NCBI GenBank assembly: GCA_016935525.1
Contig: JAFGQU010000023.1
Span: 897 to 64,896 of the forward strand
Direction: 5' to 3'
Length of the DNA: 64,000 nt
From: Candidatus Omnitrophota bacterium
Lineage (GTDB): Bacteria; Omnitrophota; Gorgyraeia; Duberdicusellales; 4484-171
Shown here: positions 26,818 to 48,025 of the stretch, piece by piece
How positions within the stretch are numbered: the stretch's first letter is position 1
How the letters are laid out: the number at the start of each line of letters is the position of its first letter
Notes under the pieces: generated by a model
What the model saw: only the letters and a program-made list of their open reading frames with translations
What the model was told of the DNA's origin: nothing
Databases searched by the model: none
Translations under genes and position numbers: made by a program

Positions 26818-27330
26818 TCAGGGGCACATTTCAATAGATTTCAATATTTTATCGACTACCTGGTTGACAGTCATATTTTTGCCGACCCGTACCTTAAGGT
26901 GGGCATATTTTTTATACAACGGTAACCGTTCGGCATATAATCGCGCGAGGTTTTTTTTCTCCAAACCGACTATCCCCCGGGAAGATCTGTTTTTAATATG
27001 CGCGCGGATAGTCGCAAGCGGCGCCGCCAGAAAGATTATCTTCGTATTTTTTCTCAAATAGCGCATCGCCTCAGGCGAATAGACGACACTCCCGCCGGGG
27101 GAAATCACATAGCCGGACGCCTTTTTAAGGGCCAGCCCGATGACGGTATCTTTTTCGAGGGTTAAAAACCTATCTTCGCCGATAGTATCGATAAGCTTCT
27201 GTAATTTCCGGCCGGTCTTCTTTTCTATCAATCGGTCGGTATCGATACACAAAGTGCGCATCTTTCTGGCAAGAGCCCTGCCCAACACGCTTTTTCCCAC
27301 ACCGACCATACCGATCAACGTCACATTCAT
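26818..27330 (-). CDS. aroK: shikimate kinase
   Basis: GMVGVGKS P-loop and shikimate kinase length. Confidence 0.85.
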   Translation of the reverse strand: MNVTLIGMVGVGKSVLGRALARKMRTLCIDTDRLIEKKTGRKLQKLIDTIGEDRFLTLEKDTVIGLALKKASGYVISPGGSVVYSPEAMRYLRKNTKIIFLAAPLATIRAHIKNRSSRGIVGLEKKNLARLYAERLPLYKKYAHLKVRVGKNMTVNQVVDKILKSIEMCP

Positions 27331-27559: not shown

Positions 27560-27814
27560 TTATTCGATATACACTCTATCGCCGGGCCGGACGTCTTCAT
27601 CGAGGATATCTCTCACGATAATGGTGACCTTGAGGTTCCCTTCGATCTGACGCAATGAACCGCCCTTTGTCTCGATCTTTAAAAGTTTGAACCGTTTGCC
27701 GCCCCAGGTACTGCCGATATCGCCTTCGGCGATCTTCCCGCGCATAAGTTCACCCGGTAACGCCAGGAGTTCTCCTACCTTATTGACTTCATGGACTTGG
27801 AATTCCGCGCTCAA
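27560..27814 (-). CDS. small hypothetical protein (84 aa, beta-rich)
   Basis: ORF only. Confidence 0.35.
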   Translation of the reverse strand: MSAEFQVHEVNKVGELLALPGELMRGKIAEGDIGSTWGGKRFKLLKIETKGGSLRQIEGNLKVTIIVRDILDEDVRPGDRVYIE

Positions 27815-27904: not shown

Positions 27905-30900
27905 TCATCTTTTCTGTTCTCTTTCTTTTTTACGGTCTTCGATGACTTTCTGAGCAAGCGCTGTCGGTAACTCTACATATTTTGAGAATTCCATGGAACA
28001 TGACGCTCTCCCGCTGCTTAAAGAACGCAATATCGTCATATATCCGAACAGTTCCGAAAGCGGAGCTTCGGCTTTCACTACTTTCAAATTGGCTTTGGAA
28101 TCGATATTGAGGATCTTTCCCCGTTTAGAACAGATGTTTCCGACGATATTACTTACATAATCTTCGGGAGTGGTTATTTCCAGCGACATAGAAGGTTCAA
28201 GCAGTGTCGGCGAACATTTCATGAACCCTTCTTTGAAACATCCGATTGCCGCAAGACGAAAGGCGATATCGGATGAATCGACTTCATGATAGGACCCGTC
28301 GATGAGATTTACATCCACATCGACGACCGGGAATCCGGCAAGTACTCCGCGTTTCATTATCTCCTGGACCCCTTTCTGCACCGACGGGATATAGTTCCTG
28401 GGGATCGATCCTCCGACGATACTGTTCACAAACTTATGCCCTTCCCCGTTGGTAGACGGCGACATCTCTATGACCACATGGCCGTACTGGCCGTGGCCGC
28501 CGGATTGTTTCACGTGTTTATACTCCGCGGTAACCGGTTTGGTGATCGTTTCTTTATAAGCGACTTTCGGCTGCCCTACGCTGGCGTTTACTTTAAATTC
28601 GTTTTTAAGACGGTCAACGATGATCTCTAAATGCAGTTCCCCCATACCCGAAAGGATCGTTTCATCGGTCTCTTCATCAGTATAGACCTGGAAGGTAGGA
28701 TCTTCTTCCATCAATCTCATAAGCGCTTTACCCAGTTTATCCTGATCGGAACGGCTTTCCGGCTGGACACTGATCGAGATGACCGGTGTCGGAAACTCAA
28801 TCGCCTCAAGTATTAACGGGTCATCCTGTGTCGTCAACGTATCCCCAGTGATCGTATTGCTTAAGCCCACCAACGCCACAATTTCTCCGGCATGAGCGTA
28901 TTCTTTATTTTCACGCTGGTTGGCATGCATCTGGACGATCCTCCCGATACGTTCTTTTTTCCCTTTAGTCGCGTTGAGGATATATGACCCCGATTTGATC
29001 ACTCCGGAATAGATCCGGGTATACACGAGTTTCCCGATATGAGGATCGGCTTGTATTTTAAAAGCTACTGCCGCAAGCGGCGCTTTTATATCAGGCGGCC
29101 TCTCGGCGGTTTTTTCCGGGTCATCGGGCAAGGTCCCGCTCACCGCGGGGATATCCAACGGTGCGGGCAAAAACGCGTTTACCGCGTCTAACAGCCGTTG
29201 AACCCCTTTATTTTTCAATGCCGTCCCGCAAAGGATAGGTACCGCTTTATTGGCAACGGTACCCCGGCGGATCGCGGCAATGATCTCTTCTTTAGTAAGT
29301 GACTCCGGTGAGTGAAGATATTTTTCCGTCAACGTCTCATCACAGGCAGCGGCTCTTTCCAGCATGATCTGATGATATTTCTGGGCGGTTTCTTTTGCTT
29401 CATCCGGGATATCTTCGATCGTGAAATCTTTGCCTTGCGAAGAATCATCGAAGATGACCGCTTTCATCTCGATCACATCGATAATACCCCGGAAATTCTC
29501 TTCCTGTCCTAACGGGATATTTATCGGGATGACGTTCGCTCCGAGTTCCTGTTCGATACTTTCCATTACGGAAAAGAAATGCGCGCCGGTACGGTCCATC
29601 TTATTTACAAAAGCGATCTTGGGGACATGATATTTTTCCGATTGCCGCCATACGGTCTCTGATTGAGGCTGTACGCCGCCGACGGCGCAGAACACGGCAA
29701 CGGCACCGTCAAGGACCCGCAGGCTCCGTTCTACCTCGACGGTAAAATCGACGTGTCCGGGAGTATCGATGATGTTAATACGATTACCTTTCCAGAAACA
29801 GGTAGTTGCCGCGGACGTGATGGTGATCCCGCGTTCCTGTTCCTGTTTCATCCAGTCCATCTGGGCTTTCCCTTCATGGACTTCTCCGATCTTATGAGAC
29901 CGGCCGGTATAAAAAAGGATCCGTTCGGTGACCGTAGTCTTTCCGGCATCGATATGGGCCATGATCCCGATATTACGGATCTTGGTGAGATCGACATCAG
30001 GTATATCGATCTCTTCTTTTTTCGTCAAAGTCTCTTCCGGTTGCTCCTCCTGCGGTTCGGCCTCTTGTGCTACGGCAGGCTCCTCTTCCTGTTCCGGTTC
30101 TGGGTGAGAAGGGACAACTTCGGCCGGCGCGGGTTGTTCCGGAGACGCCTCTTCCTGGGTTTGAGTTTCGGCAGGCTGAGCATCATCTTCCGTCACCGTT
30201 TGAGGCTCAGCCGATGAGACGCTACCGGCTGCTTCATCCGGGGCCGCAGCTTGTTCAGATTCCGGAGATTCGCTTACTTCTTCTATCTCTTCTTCGACCG
30301 CCTCTCCCAACGCCTGGCGTTTTTTGATCAGTTCATTTTTAAGACGGATCCGTTCCATATCCAGCTTCTTGATATCCTGTTCTCTGGCCTGTACTTCCCG
30401 GGTCTTGATATCAAGATGGAACTTTGCTTCTTCATATTCGGCTTTAAGGGCTTCATGCTCTTCGGCGGCGACCCAGGCGACCTGTTCATCTTTTTTACTG
30501 AGCTCTTTACTTAACTGGAAAACTCTTGTCGCCTGTTCTCTTATTTTCTCTTTATGCCGGGATATTTCTTCGTTAAGGCCGCGGATCTCGGCATTTTTAT
30601 TGCGGATCTCCCCCTCCAGGTCTTCGGCCCGTTGAGTCAAAGTACGTACTTCGGTCGCCAGTTTCACGTTCTTGGAAAATTCCATCTCCAGCAGTTTTTC
30701 TTTTTCAAGATATTTCTCTTTGGTCTCGGCCATCTGTTCGCTGGTCCGTTTAAGCATCTCCTGGGATTTACTCACCCATTCTTCCCGCTGGCCGAATTCT
30801 TCGCGAAGTTTATCTTCGATTTTCTGAGCTTCTTTGATCGTATCTTTTAAAGAAGCATATTCTTTTTTCAAGTTCTGGAACTTCTCATGAAGCGATTTAT

Positions 30901-31075
30901 ATTCGGATTTAAGGGTATGGAAATTCGTCTCGATCGCCTTGGCGCGGACGGTTCCTTTTTTATGCTGTTCGGCTTCTTTTGACGAGGTAACCATCGCATA
31001 GACGACGACCCCGATACCGATGAACACCACGGCTCCTACCCCGACCATCATTTTAAGTGAGACTAATTCGACCAT
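27905..31075 (-). CDS. elongation factor G homolog with about 350 aa N-terminal extension (TM helix, K/E-rich coiled coil, acidic Pro/Glu/Gln-rich linker)
   Basis: [19 protein letters not shown]-motifs; all five EF-G domains incl. domain IV loop SYHEVDSS; N-terminal [21 protein letters not shown] hydrophobic helix; not in an rpsL-rpsG-fusA-tuf context. Confidence 0.85.
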
Positions 31076-31367
31076 AGTATTATATTGTTCCGGGTAATCT
31101 TATGTATTTTCCTGCTACTTTTTATATATACCATATATAACCCCATAAAAACAATATTCGGTACTAGAAAAGAGTAAGCGTTTACACATAATCGTTAGTT
31201 AAATAGCGGTTAGACTAAAAATATATTTGTATCCTTTTCCCTAACGGGATAACGGGGCATCGGGGGAACGGGTGAACCGGCTAACCTGACTATAGACCAT
31301 TGACTCCTCCCGCCAAAGGATAGCCGATACACTTTATTGGGAAATGTGTGATTTGAAGGCGTAGCTG

Positions 31368-42649: not shown

Positions 42650-45082
42650 TCATCCATGGAGCACATTTTCTTCTTTAGCGATGACCTGTAAAAACCGATC
42701 GACGATCTCAGGATCAAACTGCGTACCGGCTCCTTCTCTGATTATATTCAAAGCGTCTTGGTGAGAAAACGCCTTCCGGTAAGCGCGGTCGGAAATAAGC
42801 GCATGGTACACATCGGCGACGGCGATTATCCGCGCCCCGACAGGGATATCTTCTCCGCTCAATCCATGAGGATACCCGGTCCCGTCCCACCATTCATGAT
42901 GATGAAGGATAGACGGTATGAGATCATGCAAATACTGTATCGGACGGATGATATCGACCGCTATATTGGGATGTTTTTTTATCTCATCGTATTCTTTCCT
43001 GGTGAGCGCGGATTTTTTAAGAAGGATCTTCTCGCTGATACCGATCTTACCCAGATCGTGAAGGATCGCCGCCTGTTTTATACATTCGACTTCCTCTTTA
43101 GGCAGATTCAAGCTATGGGCGATCTCGGCGACATAATGTTCGGTATTTTCGGTATGCGTGCCGGTATAGTGGTCTTTCACTTTAATGGTCTTGGCAAAAG
43201 CGAATACCGCCTCGATCAGGCTCTGGTTCGCCCGTTTATTCAGCCGGTTGATCTTTTCCTGCAAAAAGGAGATATCGTTAAACGCGTTCACCTGGCCAGA
43301 TAAGTTCAACCGGCGGTCTGTATATAAGTCTCCGGAAGTATAGATACGATTGCCGCCGTCTTCTTTTACTTTATTCAGGATACGGTCGACTGATTTAAAC
43401 AGATCCATCGGTTCAAACGCCCCGTCTTCGGGATACGATACGATGGCGCTGCTCAGTTTTAATTTCACTTTGATTTTATGGTTCCCGAAATCATATAAAT
43501 GGATATGATCGAATATCCTTTGTACAAGCTTTAGCGCGGTCACCCGGTCGGTCCCCGGCGAAATAATGATGAATTCTTCGCCGCCGAAACGCACCGCGCT
43601 GTCGTAGCGGCGGACTTTCTTTTTTAATACCCGGGCAAACTGCCTGAGCACCAGATCGCCGAATTGATGGCCGTAGACATCGTTGATAGATTTGAAATAA
43701 TCCAGGTCTATCATGATGATCGAAAGCGGATGATGCGATCTTTTCGCGCGATAGAATTCCCGAATGAGCACTTCTTCGAAATAACGATGATTATACAATC
43801 TGGTCTGAGAATCGATGAGCGATAACCGGTGAAGTCGCTTATTCGACTTGACGAGTTGACGGTTCAATAATTCCCGTTCCTCCTCGATCCGTTTACGCTG
43901 GCTGATATTACGCACGTATTCGACGACTCCCCGAGACCGGCCTTGATTATCTACAATCGGGAACGCATACAGTTCAAGCGTCCCGGTTATCCCGTCAGGC
44001 TGGGTGAGCGGGACTTCATACATCTCCAGTTTATTCGTACGCAACGCTTTCAGTGTAGGGCAACGGGAACAGGCTTTTTTTCGACCGTGATACGCTTCAT
44101 AACATTTCTTACCTTCTAAAGGCAAGGCATGAGCGTACCATCGTTTCATCGCTTCGTTCACCCGTACGATATTGAGCCCGGTATCAAGCACACTGATGCC
44201 GTCCTGGATACTGTCAAATACGGTACTCAAAAATTTATCGCGCTCGCGCAGGGTTTCCTGGGCCTTTTTACGCTGGCTGATATCACGGACAACGGCAAGG
44301 ATCCGTTTTTCATCGCCGCCGGTCACATATTTCAAGTTCACTTCCACCCAGAATTCTTTTCCCCAACGGTCTTTCGCCAGCCACTCGAATACCTGCGGGC
44401 CTTCCTTTATCGCCCGGCGTAACCACAGCTCTACTTCTTTCTGGGTATAGGGAGGCTTGTTGGCGCTGATATCGGCGACACTGAGCGTTACCGCCTCTTC
44501 ACGGGTAAATCCGTACAGCTCGATCATGCGGTCGTTGACATCGATTATCTTCCCGGTTTTGGGGTCATGGACAAAAATAGCGTCACTGGCCGAATTAAAT
44601 ATATTGTGGTAATTTTTTGCGGCAATCATAACCTTCTCTTCGGCAGCTTTGCGTTCGGTCACATCGCGGATGACCGCAAGGATAAAAGCCGATTTACCGG
44701 ATTTATCGGTGATTGCCGATGCGCTGATCTCCCCGATAAAAGTGCTTCCGTCTTTTCTTACCAGCTGATAAGGAAGGTCGCGGGTCTGGCCGTCGCGGAA
44801 TGTCCTCTGGATATTTTTGATCGCGCGGATCCTCTCTTTAGGAGCAAAAAACTGTAGACCGTGACGGCCGGTTACTTCTTCAAGTTTTTCGTATCCGTAT
44901 AATTTGAGAGCCTGGGAATTAGCCATCCGGACCTTGAGGTGGGCATCGGTAAGGACGATCGCATCCGGAGAGATCTTCACCAGAGCGCTGTAAAGGTCCA
45001 ATCCGTTATGCGGGATTTTCTGGGGATCATCACTATAACGGGAACTCTCATCCTTGAATCTAAATAACCGTTTAAATACCAT
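42650..45082 (-). CDS. PAS/PAS/PAS-GGDEF-HD-GYP bifunctional c-di-GMP cyclase/phosphodiesterase
   Basis: RFGGEEFII (GGDEF), HD..HHEWWDGTGYP (HD-GYP), multiple PAS/PAC. Confidence 0.85.
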   Translation of the reverse strand: MVFKRLFRFKDESSRYSDDPQKIPHNGLDLYSALVKISPDAIVLTDAHLKVRMANSQALKLYGYEKLEEVTGRHGLQFFAPKERIRAIKNIQRTFRDGQTRDLPYQLVRKDGSTFIGEISASAITDKSGKSAFILAVIRDVTERKAAEEKVMIAAKNYHNIFNSASDAIFVHDPKTGKIIDVNDRMIELYGFTREEAVTLSVADISANKPPYTQKEVELWLRRAIKEGPQVFEWLAKDRWGKEFWVEVNLKYVTGGDEKRILAVVRDISQRKKAQETLRERDKFLSTVFDSIQDGISVLDTGLNIVRVNEAMKRWYAHALPLEGKKCYEAYHGRKKACSRCPTLKALRTNKLEMYEVPLTQPDGITGTLELYAFPIVDNQGRSRGVVEYVRNISQRKRIEEERELLNRQLVKSNKRLHRLSLIDSQTRLYNHRYFEEVLIREFYRAKRSHHPLSIIMIDLDYFKSINDVYGHQFGDLVLRQFARVLKKKVRRYDSAVRFGGEEFIIISPGTDRVTALKLVQRIFDHIHLYDFGNHKIKVKLKLSSAIVSYPEDGAFEPMDLFKSVDRILNKVKEDGGNRIYTSGDLYTDRRLNLSGQVNAFNDISFLQEKINRLNKRANQSLIEAVFAFAKTIKVKDHYTGTHTENTEHYVAEIAHSLNLPKEEVECIKQAAILHDLGKIGISEKILLKKSALTRKEYDEIKKHPNIAVDIIRPIQYLHDLIPSILHHHEWWDGTGYPHGLSGEDIPVGARIIAVADVYHALISDRAYRKAFSHQDALNIIREGAGTQFDPEIVDRFLQVIAKEENVLHG

Positions 45083-46277: not shown

Positions 46278-46757
46278 TTACCAGTAAAGCTGTTGAAACT
46301 GCCGGGAATAACGGTTCACCCATTCAAAAGAAGCTTCTTCTATAGTTATGTCGTCACCGGACTGGATACTGCGCAGATCACGGTATTCACTGATCAAATA
46401 CATCTGCTCGATAAGGCGTACCCGGAACGCTTCCGAAGAAGTCTCAAAACTGACTCCGATATTATACAAGCCGCCCTTTTCACTCTCCGAACAATGGACC
46501 ACTTTGCCTTTGACATTATATACTTTATCCTCAAACGGCATTTTGATCATGATCAGAGAATCTATCTCTGCCGGATGTTTCGCAGAAAAGAGTAACCCGC
46601 CCCGGGAGATATTGCGGGTATGGACATTCCCCTGATGCAGGGCCTGAGAGGCGCCCCGTTTGATCACCCGGTAACTTAACGGGAAACACATCGGGTGACG
46701 GATAAACTGGCGGCGTTCACTGGTCTTTTTATGTTGTTTCATAGTATCCGGTTCCAT
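46278..46757 (-). CDS. PilZ-like protein with conserved C-terminal extension
   Basis: RRQFIR, NISRGGLLF; C-terminus RLIEQMYLISEY..QQLYW shared with 47552-48025. Confidence 0.65.
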   Translation of the reverse strand: MEPDTMKQHKKTSERRQFIRHPMCFPLSYRVIKRGASQALHQGNVHTRNISRGGLLFSAKHPAEIDSLIMIKMPFEDKVYNVKGKVVHCSESEKGGLYNIGVSFETSSEAFRVRLIEQMYLISEYRDLRSIQSGDDITIEEASFEWVNRYSRQFQQLYW

Positions 46758-47551: not shown

Positions 47552-48025
47552 TTACCAATAGAGTTTTTGAAACTTCTGGGAATATCGACGCAACCACTCA
47601 CGGGATGCCTCAGGCAGGGAAATCTCACGGCCCAGCTGTTGCTTACGCAATTGCCAGTACTCACCGATCAAATACATCTGTTCGATAAGCCGGACACGAA
47701 AAGCGTCGCTGACATCCTGAAAGTTTACCCCCACCAGGTAATGGTTTTCTCGAGAGTCTTTCGTACAATGAACGACTTTGGCATGTACGGTATATACTTT
47801 ATTGCGAAAAGGGATCTTTATTTTAAGTACAGCGTTTTTGGTAAGCACTTCGCGCGTAGCGAACAAAAGCCCGCCCCGGCTGATATTAAGAGTCCGGGAT
47901 TTGCCTTTCGTTGATTTTTGAGACAGACAGGACCTTTTTTTTACGACCTGATATTCAAACGGGAGGCTGATCGGATGACGTATTGATTGTCTGCGTTCCT
48001 GAGGGTCTTGCTTACGTGCGGCCAT
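47552..48025 (-). CDS. PilZ-like protein, paralog of 46278-46757
   Basis: RRQSIR, NISRGGLLF, C-terminus RLIEQMYLIGEY..QKLYW. Confidence 0.65.
   Translation of the reverse strand: MAARKQDPQERRQSIRHPISLPFEYQVVKKRSCLSQKSTKGKSRTLNISRGGLLFATREVLTKNAVLKIKIPFRNKVYTVHAKVVHCTKDSRENHYLVGVNFQDVSDAFRVRLIEQMYLIGEYWQLRKQQLGREISLPEASREWLRRYSQKFQKLYW

Follow-up and report, generated by a model that had tools for sequence, protein, structure and literature searches.

Elongation factor G (EF-G) is usually regarded as a soluble, freely diffusing factor. Here, we analyzed a stretch of 64,000 nucleotides of contig JAFGQU010000023.1 (positions 897 to 64,896 of the forward strand, assembly GCA_016935525.1, Candidatus Omnitrophota bacterium), which we call the window, and describe a gene whose predicted product carries a complete EF-G on an N-terminal membrane anchor. 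The gene occupies positions 27905..31075 of the minus strand (stop codon at 27905-27907) and forms, as stated in an earlier note on this DNA that had been made from the letters alone, one unbroken open reading frame (ORF) of 1056 codons; its start codon is ATG. More than 100 homologs support it over its full length. We read the product as an active EF-G that is tethered near the inner membrane and probably serves membrane-proximal ribosomes. Our confidence in this role is moderate; our confidence in the architecture alone, a transmembrane (TM) helix, a coiled coil and an acidic linker in front of EF-G, is high.

Searching 5.8 billion proteins returned a best set of 120 matches which, the NCBI record of the gene itself (P0001) excepted, were 985-1172 aa long and covered 92-100% of the query. 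Homologs sharing the architecture number more than 100, span the same length range and stem almost all from Omnitrophota metagenome-assembled genomes (MAGs); each of these long proteins begins with a hydrophobic helix, continues as a charged region devoid of proline and then carries an acidic linker. A scan with one genome per species yielded 430 relatives, and loci were analyzed from the best 80 of these 430 matches, of which 78 were kept. They come from nearly exclusively Omnitrophota MAGs, some of them deposited as "uncultured Planctomycetia", and two belong to Auribacterota. The 83 EF-G genes in these loci split cleanly into two classes: in 54 long genes the G1 motif is preceded by 313-444 aa and the TM helix is located at residues 0-17, and in 29 short genes 16 aa precede G1. 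Nonsynonymous and synonymous divergence (pN/pS) was determined against the closest relative (L004, 75% identical) and amounted to 0.26/0.74 in the TM segment, 0.22/0.70 in the coil, 0.40/0.75 in the linker and 0.08/0.68 in the EF-G core, ratios that are rough because the synonymous rate (dS) is saturated but that indicate purifying selection on the extension. With more than 100 homologs keeping the ORF and pN far below pS in the extension, the length of the ORF is far from what chance would give. The earlier note had raised the possibility of a stop or frameshift between the extension and the G domain; in the 54 long loci, the frame stays open through length-variable linkers in 53. In the remaining locus (L052, 4981-6237) the long-form frame ends 56 codons after G1, inside the G domain, and this gene is either a pseudogene or the result of a frameshift or an assembly error. 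Judged from these homologs, the anchor-coil-linker-EF-G design is conserved across the phylum, and the unusual architecture proposed in the earlier note is real.

The C-terminal part of the protein (residues 358-1056) is a complete five-domain match to canonical EF-G (fusA, TIGR00484) and retains every GTPase and domain IV motif. Five Pfam domains were found above cutoff: the G domain with its G' insert and an intact P-loop (GTP_EFTU and invariant columns, residues 365-637, 29165..29983, all coordinates of gene parts being on the minus strand), domain II (residues 667-749, 28829..29077), domain III (EFG_III, residues 761-834, 28574..28795), domain IV with the loop tips SGGHGQYGH and GSYHEVDSS (EFG_IV, residues 836-954, 28214..28570) and domain V (EFG_C, residues 958-1043, 27947..28204). 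The complete EF-G that had been recognized by eye was therefore recovered in full, including the G1-G4 motifs and the intact domain IV loop at residues 926-935. The NCBIfam EF-G equivalog model TIGR00484 scored 1040.1 bits (cutoff 659.4) and aligned residues 361-1050 with positions 5-691 of its 691 positions. Models of related GTPases remained below their cutoffs, namely EF-G2/EFG II (NF009377, 503 vs 890 bits; NF058620, 493 vs 1000 bits), ribosomal protection proteins of the Tet(M)/Tet(O) type (NF012153, 388 vs 775 bits), LepA (TIGR01393, 174 vs 534 bits, with domain IV present in the long EF-G) as well as TypA and RF3. By these scores the core is assigned to EF-G proper (EFG I) and not to EF-G2, Tet, LepA or RF3. 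In the full-length AlphaFold2 (AF2) model the core is well folded, with a predicted local distance difference test score (pLDDT) of 80-95 that is low only in switch I.

Across the long class (42-53 sequences compared) the P-loop, switch I/II, DTPGH, NKMD and the domain IV tips SGG[RH]GQYGH and GS[YF]HEVDSS are kept, and in a 42-sequence family alignment the catalytic and domain IV motifs are invariant (G859, G860, Q863-H866, H930, D933-S935). This invariance favors an active factor rather than a passive handle. Column 998 alone separates the two forms cleanly, with K in the long and Q in the short proteins. Both residues occur in ordinary EF-Gs. With a single discriminating column, functional divergence would sit in the added module and not in the enzyme.

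In residues 1-360 no Pfam match above noise was found. The hydrophobic helix seen earlier at the N-terminus corresponds to a putative TM anchor at residues 9-32 (30980..31051), a 24-residue uncharged stretch with a mean Kyte-Doolittle value of 2.5; AF2 places the N-terminal helix at residues 2-29 or 3-30. In 53 family sequences the uncharged span starts near residue 1 and extends over a median of 24 residues, with on average 0.11 K/R before the TM segment and 4.3 in the 15 residues after it. According to the positive-inside rule this charge pattern predicts an N-out/C-in signal anchor without cleavable signal peptide, which would leave the EF-G part on the cytoplasmic side. Both features expected of an integral-membrane signal anchor, a span that reaches or exceeds about 20 residues and a positive-inside charge pattern, are thus present in the sequence. 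An opposite topology would follow if the hydrophobic segment were a cleavable signal peptide and the protein were exported to moonlight at the surface, e.g. in host attachment. The N-terminal position of the segment and the notion that many Omnitrophota are epibionts or predators (PMC10066038) are in line with export. The segment has, however, no positive n-region (0.11 K/R), and the 4.3 K/R behind it predict the N-out/C-in orientation. By established signal-peptide rules a 24-residue hydrophobic span is also too long for a Sec signal peptide. Moreover, no substrate outside the cytoplasm is obvious for a GTPase that depends on ribosomes and GTP, although its catalytic residues are all conserved, and we consider export hardly credible.

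The anchor is followed by a basic juxtamembrane segment (residues 33-43, 30947..30979), which is rich in K/R and predicted to be disordered (AF2 pLDDT <50 at residues 30-46), and by coiled coil 1 (residues 44-198, 30482..30946), about 22 uninterrupted heptads identified by AF2 and by heptad power. In an AF2 run on residues 1-258 together with 30 family sequences (mean pLDDT 87), a helix at 3-30 and a disordered stretch at 31-39 precede a continuous helix at 40-198 (pLDDT ~98) and a further helix at 204-257; the full-length model shows the same N-terminal layout. In the family alignment the heptad power of residues 40-198 is 2.4 at period 3.5 and does not exceed 0.05 at 3.6 and 3.67, and the hydrophobic register is constant over about 20 heptads and shifts after a break at 199-203. 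This periodicity identifies residues 40-198 as a canonical coiled coil on sequence grounds. The break (199-203 or 198-203 in AF2; 30467..30481) carries the motif S-E-W-V with W201 conserved in at least 90% of the sequences, followed by K.EFN.LNEEY, and leads into coiled coil 2 (residues 204-257, 30305..30466; AF2 helix and heptad periodicity). The rise of a coiled coil is about 0.15 nm per residue. By this standard geometry the two coils would measure about 23 nm (coil 1) and about 8 nm (coil 2) if extended. The K/E-rich heptad region of the earlier note is thus present, with a length of about 215 aa (residues 44-257) instead of 250.

Although family members share only about 25% identity in the coil, W100, K125, F133, K135, N136, V137, W201 and L210 are nearly invariant. 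They fall into three motifs, RREEWV.K, KEKEL..EFSKNV.L and SEWV.K.EFN.LNEEY; the first spans residues 95-102 (R-R-E-E-W-V-x-K, 30770..30793, with W100 invariant or nearly so in the alignment) and the second residues 124-140 (KEKELxxEFSKNVxL, 30656..30706, with K125, F133, K135, N136 and V137 conserved in at least 90%). Coiled coil 2 is connected to EF-G by a linker (residues 258-357, 30005..30304) that is predicted to be disordered from its composition and an AF2 pLDDT of about 30. It contains 29 E, 4 D, 13 P and 2 K, i.e. a net charge of -31, and the acidic Pro/Glu-rich linker reported before is there, with a length of about 100 aa rather than 90. In the full-length AF2 model residues 255-355 are likewise disordered (pLDDT ~30) and without secondary structure. 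Among 120 family members the linker is 44-122 aa long, in 99% net negative, contains 14% Pro and has a pairwise identity of 23%; as its composition is kept and its sequence is not, and as it is disordered in AF2, we take it as a spacer. A comparison of the N-terminal model with the PDB by Foldseek gave no matches, and searching the extension against PDB sequences gave only generic coiled coils with marginal E-values.

The earlier note had also considered that EF-G might be made separately from an internal TTG near position 30020. This TTG (codon 350, 30026..30028) is without Shine-Dalgarno (SD)-like motif at -16..-4 and thus receives no support as a start. Sixteen codons before G1, where 28 of 29 short genes have their ATG, a start codon is present in 2 of 54 long genes; an SD-like motif precedes the EF-G start in 27 of 29 short genes, and any start with SD in the range of -30..-8 codons was found in only 2 of 54 long genes. 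With neither start nor SD conserved at the boundary in the 54 long genes, the proposal of a separate EF-G product is not borne out, and no homologs were seen in which EF-G starts internally. At the beginning of the gene, the SD signal is weaker in the long (17/54) than in the short genes (27/29), which is consistent with a specialized factor of lower abundance. Another internal start is used in the NCBI annotation: P0001 is 100% identical to the gene product but only 817 aa long, its G1 motif being shifted by 239 residues, and begins at the ATG of Met240 (30356..30358). This start removes the anchor and most of the coil from the gene product. Probably, start sites in the long EF-G family are misannotated systematically owing to expectations on EF-G length.

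If the annotation were right, or if codon 350 were used, the long ORF would give two products; similarly, the fusion might have been created by sequencing or assembly. Besides the NCBI start, two observations can be quoted for such an artifact: codons of a Glu-rich linker yield purine-rich, SD-like strings, and one homolog (L052) is interrupted. Against it, 53 of 54 loci from different assemblies keep a single frame through linkers of 44-122 aa, the boundary lacks the conserved start and SD of the short genes (2/54 vs 28/29), the TM helix always sits at the extreme N-terminus, and the 239 codons before Met240 are under purifying selection and hold the best conserved motifs. We therefore regard an artifact as very improbable. 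Anchor, coil, linker and EF-G are, on this comparative evidence, predicted to form one polypeptide.

To trace the origin of the anchor-coil module we used a TM-coil profile in an exhaustive HMMER search against 1.84 billion cluster representatives, which returned 726 matches with E<=1e-3 and 279 with E<=1e-10. Word-seeded searches were uninformative on the distribution of the module (one match for the extension profile, which was swamped by K/E-rich proteins, and two for P0256). The top tier of the HMMER matches consists of long EF-Gs and contig-end fragments, and all inspected matches that extend past the linker enter EF-G, except one frame-shifted fragment. The second tier contains numerous proteins that stand alone, are 210-238 aa long and combine a TM segment at the N-terminus with the same two Trp motifs about 97 residues apart; they end about 30 residues past the second Trp motif. 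Examples are L082 6001-6693 (P0121), L084 6001-6711 (P0256) and L085 770-1414 (P0205), with further members among P0205-P0271. No Pfam match was found for this standalone family. An hhalign comparison of the extension with the family gave a probability of 99.9% and an E-value of 1.5e-34 over 185 nearly gap-free columns (extension residues ~43-227), with W100 and W201 aligned to the two Trp motifs. The motifs of the family (GW..KE and ESEW[VI].K.EY, ~97-100 residues apart) are found in the extension of the long EF-G as well; the long EF-G differs from the family in length and locus, the module being fused to EF-G. Compared to the standalone proteins (~215-235 aa), which have the TM segment and the two Trp motifs in common with it, the long EF-G additionally contains the second coil, which has no counterpart in these homologs, the acidic linker and EF-G. 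This homology to a membrane family of about 225 aa leads us to conclude that the long EF-G gene arose by fusion and, as read from the sequences, links a pre-existing small membrane coiled-coil protein to a duplicated EF-G through an extra stretch of coil and the acidic linker.

Two standalone members from different assemblies, one of them labeled Omnitrophica by NCBI, share a locus with the order Hpt, a TPR protein of 600-620 aa, the standalone gene, an aminotransferase, a (dCMP) deaminase and a response regulator. At both loci the start of the standalone gene overlaps the stop of the TPR gene and no EF-G gene is adjacent. A module that occurs by itself in a conserved locus of its own beside a TPR protein should have a function independent of EF-G, and TM segment plus long coiled coil resemble structural tethers. 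The EF-G part might then be a mere handle by which active or hibernating ribosomes are docked to the membrane or to a coiled-coil cortical scaffold, catalysis being secondary. That the ribosome content of V. archaeovorus varies with lifestyle (PMC10066038) would fit such docking. Yet a handle would need neither the catalytic His nor the switches nor the two domain IV tips, all of which are invariant, and the EF-G core is the most constrained part of the protein (pN 0.08). In addition, binding of EF-G to the ribosome is transient unless GTP hydrolysis or release is blocked. We consider a ribosome handle improbable, and prefer the reading of a catalytically active EF-G held near the membrane.

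Other proteins with a TM segment and coiled coils were encountered in the course of these searches. ORFs without the Trp motifs lie 1-1.3 kb downstream of the long EF-G at two loci and 2.3 kb downstream of the short EF-G at a third (L008 9102-9989, L059 6437-6961, L012 10417-11013), and those of L008 and L059 end in EEYNRLK[ED]KL..AEEVLR..HA. As they matched the profile with 1e-17 to 1e-21 they were considered as relatives of the module, but were rejected because of the missing Trp motifs; the matches are probably compositional and the ORFs a different family. Three larger proteins of 529-724 aa (P0204, P0215, P0202) matched the extension profile weakly in several stretches. Each combines a TM segment at the N-terminus with internally repeated coiled-coil modules and a C-terminal MshEN/T2SSE_N-like region, which in the longer two (P0204 and P0215) is followed by a domain that looks PilZ-like by eye. 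They may be membrane coiled-coil proteins responsive to cyclic di-GMP (c-di-GMP).

The earlier note had suspected an EF-G paralog since the gene is outside the usual rpsL-rpsG-fusA-tuf context, and both statements were corroborated. None of rpsL, rpsG, tuf and rpsJ was found in the window. Likewise, tblastn searches with E. coli S12, S7, S10 and EF-Tu queries detected none of these proteins in the window or within 6 kb on either side of the 83 long and short EF-G genes. All that the queries returned, in the window and at all loci, were cross-matches of EF-Tu to the G domains of EF-G, which indicates that the search worked. Related genomes also hold an ordinary EF-G of 697 aa. At locus L003 such a gene is located upstream of the long one, at a distance of 329 nt; its product is 72% identical to the long EF-G, and both exceed 1000 bits with TIGR00484. 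Long and short forms occur together in at least 7 of the 76 assemblies represented, a lower bound considering that only the best 80 of 430 matches were analyzed and that MAGs are incomplete. In four assemblies, including the complete 1.5-Mb chromosome CP070797.1, both are found within a few kb at one locus. They are directly adjacent in L003 and L044, in opposite orders, and L044 falls into the same clade as the gene of the window. On CP070797.1 (L010, 1239-8088) the order is short EF-G, an RlmB/SpoU-like rRNA methyltransferase, a small lipoprotein-like ORF and long EF-G, all encoded by one strand within 7 kb.

Neighbor joining of the EF-G core sequences placed the short forms, those of Auribacterota among them, in one clan, with the remainder of the tree made up of long forms. 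Mean core identity is 70% among the long and 76% among the short forms. Together with the co-occurrence known from related genomes, this phylogeny supports the view that the long EF-G is an Omnitrophota-specific paralog. One assembly (CAZAYU01) departs from the pattern: the core of its long EF-G (L031) shares 82% identity with the short EF-G that the genome also encodes (L077) and, unlike all other long forms, groups with it in the tree, a likeness that suggests gene conversion between the paralogs.

Comparison with known systems puts the novelty in the membrane module. Relative to canonical EF-G, the long form adds 357 aa of TM helix, coil and linker, lies outside the str operon and is accompanied by a second copy in related genomes, the ordinary 697-aa EF-G of the phylum, to which its core is 68-72% identical. 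EF-G2/EFG II, spdEFG1/2, gcEFG2 and EF-G1A/1B of P. aeruginosa are likewise lineage-specific duplicates beside another EF-G copy, for which sub-functionalization is to be expected. Those paralogs are soluble and have diverged in their core (EFG II, spdEFG1/2, gcEFG2, P. aeruginosa EF-G1A/1B; PMC3150367, PMC4342817, PMC3832671), whereas the core of the long EF-G is nearly unchanged and what is new lies entirely in the membrane-anchoring module. No description of an EF-G bearing a TM segment or a coiled coil was found in the literature searched. The words "transmembrane", "membrane" and "coiled" are not in the text of a survey of translational GTPases (PMC4342817), the Omnitrophota phylum paper (PMC10066038) never mentions elongation factors, and a preprint on complete genomes (10.64898/2026.06.07.730766) names EF-G only as operon or HVR cargo. 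A membrane anchor on EF-G is thus new as far as the literature searched shows.

A further parallel is LepA/EF4 (in mitochondria Guf1), a translational GTPase of the EF-G superfamily that was reported to reside largely at the membrane, from which it is set free upon stress (PMC4245954). LepA lacks domain IV, G' and a TM segment, has a C-terminal domain of its own and associates peripherally, while the long EF-G has an integral TM helix and a long stalk. Similar design logic, an N-terminal TM segment and a coiled coil combined with a module acting on RNA or ribosomes, is known from RNase Y and from the ER ribosome receptor p180/RRBP1 and kinectin, to which there is no sequence or fold relationship. 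None of these is known to tether a translation elongation factor.

By analogy to LepA/EF4 in E. coli, the long EF-G could be a membrane-held reserve that is kept away from ribosomes or inactive and is set free by proteolysis of the linker or activated under certain conditions. A long, exposed and disordered linker is an easy target for proteases, LepA provides a precedent for membrane localization with stress release (PMC4245954), and the weaker SD of the long genes (17/54 vs 27/29) fits a role outside bulk translation. However, a stalk of ~30 nm with a leash projects EF-G outward instead of hiding it, neither a protease site nor a conserved motif was found in the linker (23% identity), and a free paralog is already present in the same genomes. 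For LepA itself the storage model is contested (PMC4245954). Storage is in our view unlikely.

We therefore return to the reading of an active EF-G that is held close to the inner membrane, which might work as follows. The N-terminus would insert N-out/C-in into the inner membrane, and the heptad coil would oligomerize, probably as a dimer or trimer, into a rigid stalk of ~25-30 nm. The polyanionic, Pro-rich linker of 44-122 aa, which is expected to be repelled by rRNA and anionic lipids, would serve as a flexible leash and may give EF-G access to ribosomes within a shell that lies a few tens of nm beneath the membrane. There, the tethered factor would carry out translocation and/or recycling, most plausibly on ribosomes that insert or secrete proteins, and the ordinary free EF-G would cover bulk translation. 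A more far-reaching version, which we put forward tentatively and hold to be possible but rather doubtful, is that Omnitrophota organize translation at the membrane, with a dimeric 30-nm stalk presenting the translocase to a cortical layer of ribosomes in a zone resembling rough ER; this same scaffold might also be built by the standalone two-Trp homolog together with its TPR partner.

Several points weigh against a dedicated membrane-proximal factor. Omnitrophota cells are only about 0.2 µm across (PMC10066038), and a tether of 30-60 nm would reach much of their cytoplasm, so that 'localized' translation is maybe a weak distinction. No conserved neighbors (Sec, YidC, signal recognition particle etc.) were detected around the long EF-G, the commonest neighbor being present in 10 of 54 loci, and codon bias (effective number of codons, Nc, and GC content at third codon positions, GC3) did not differ between long and short genes in 7 genomes. 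The Trp motifs suggest a specific partner protein. Furthermore, canonical S12-S7-EF-G-EF-Tu-S10 operons are reported for several complete Omnitrophota chromosomes (preprint 10.64898/2026.06.07.730766). Some genomes may therefore possess an additional EF-G of greater divergence; alternatively, in other orders it may be the short type that lies within this operon. A scan of viral contigs for a mobile str-operon EF-G found nothing.

A phylum-wide anchored EF-G beside an ordinary copy implies that in some bacteria the supply or regulation of elongation or recycling is spatially restricted. It offers a handle on the layout of translation in ultra-small cells and on the coupling of elongation to membrane insertion and secretion, and represents a case of gene fusion in which a new localization was grafted onto an essential enzyme with its core unchanged. 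Should the cortical zone exist, this would be the first membrane-integral core elongation factor, and diffusion of factors would not be universal in bacterial translation. The analysis also exposes an annotation error, the 817-aa NCBI version without anchor, and reveals an uncharacterized family of membrane coiled-coil proteins as module donor.

Around the gene, the Rfam search of the window gave a single match, a tRNA at 296-370. The upstream intergenic region (31076-31367, ~290 nt) is AT-rich and contains neither an Rfam match (no leader or riboswitch) nor a strong SD ahead of the ATG, and a scan for promoters and terminators did not exceed the shuffled expectation. Downstream, an ORF of 84 aa (27560-27814, minus strand) follows on the same strand after 91 nt; it has no Pfam match, is kept only in the closest relative (L004 4914-5219) and is followed by shikimate kinase (26818-27330). 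Elsewhere in the window, two paralogous ORFs of ~158 aa (46278-46757 and 47552-48025, minus strand, ~800 nt apart) appear PilZ-like by eye, with RRQFIRHP or RRQSIRHP at the N-terminus and RVRLIEQMYLI.EY ... Q.LYW in common at the C-terminus, and this unusual small duplicated pair is located near a protein of 810 aa (42650-45082) which, also by eye, looks like a PAS-GGDEF-HD-GYP protein.

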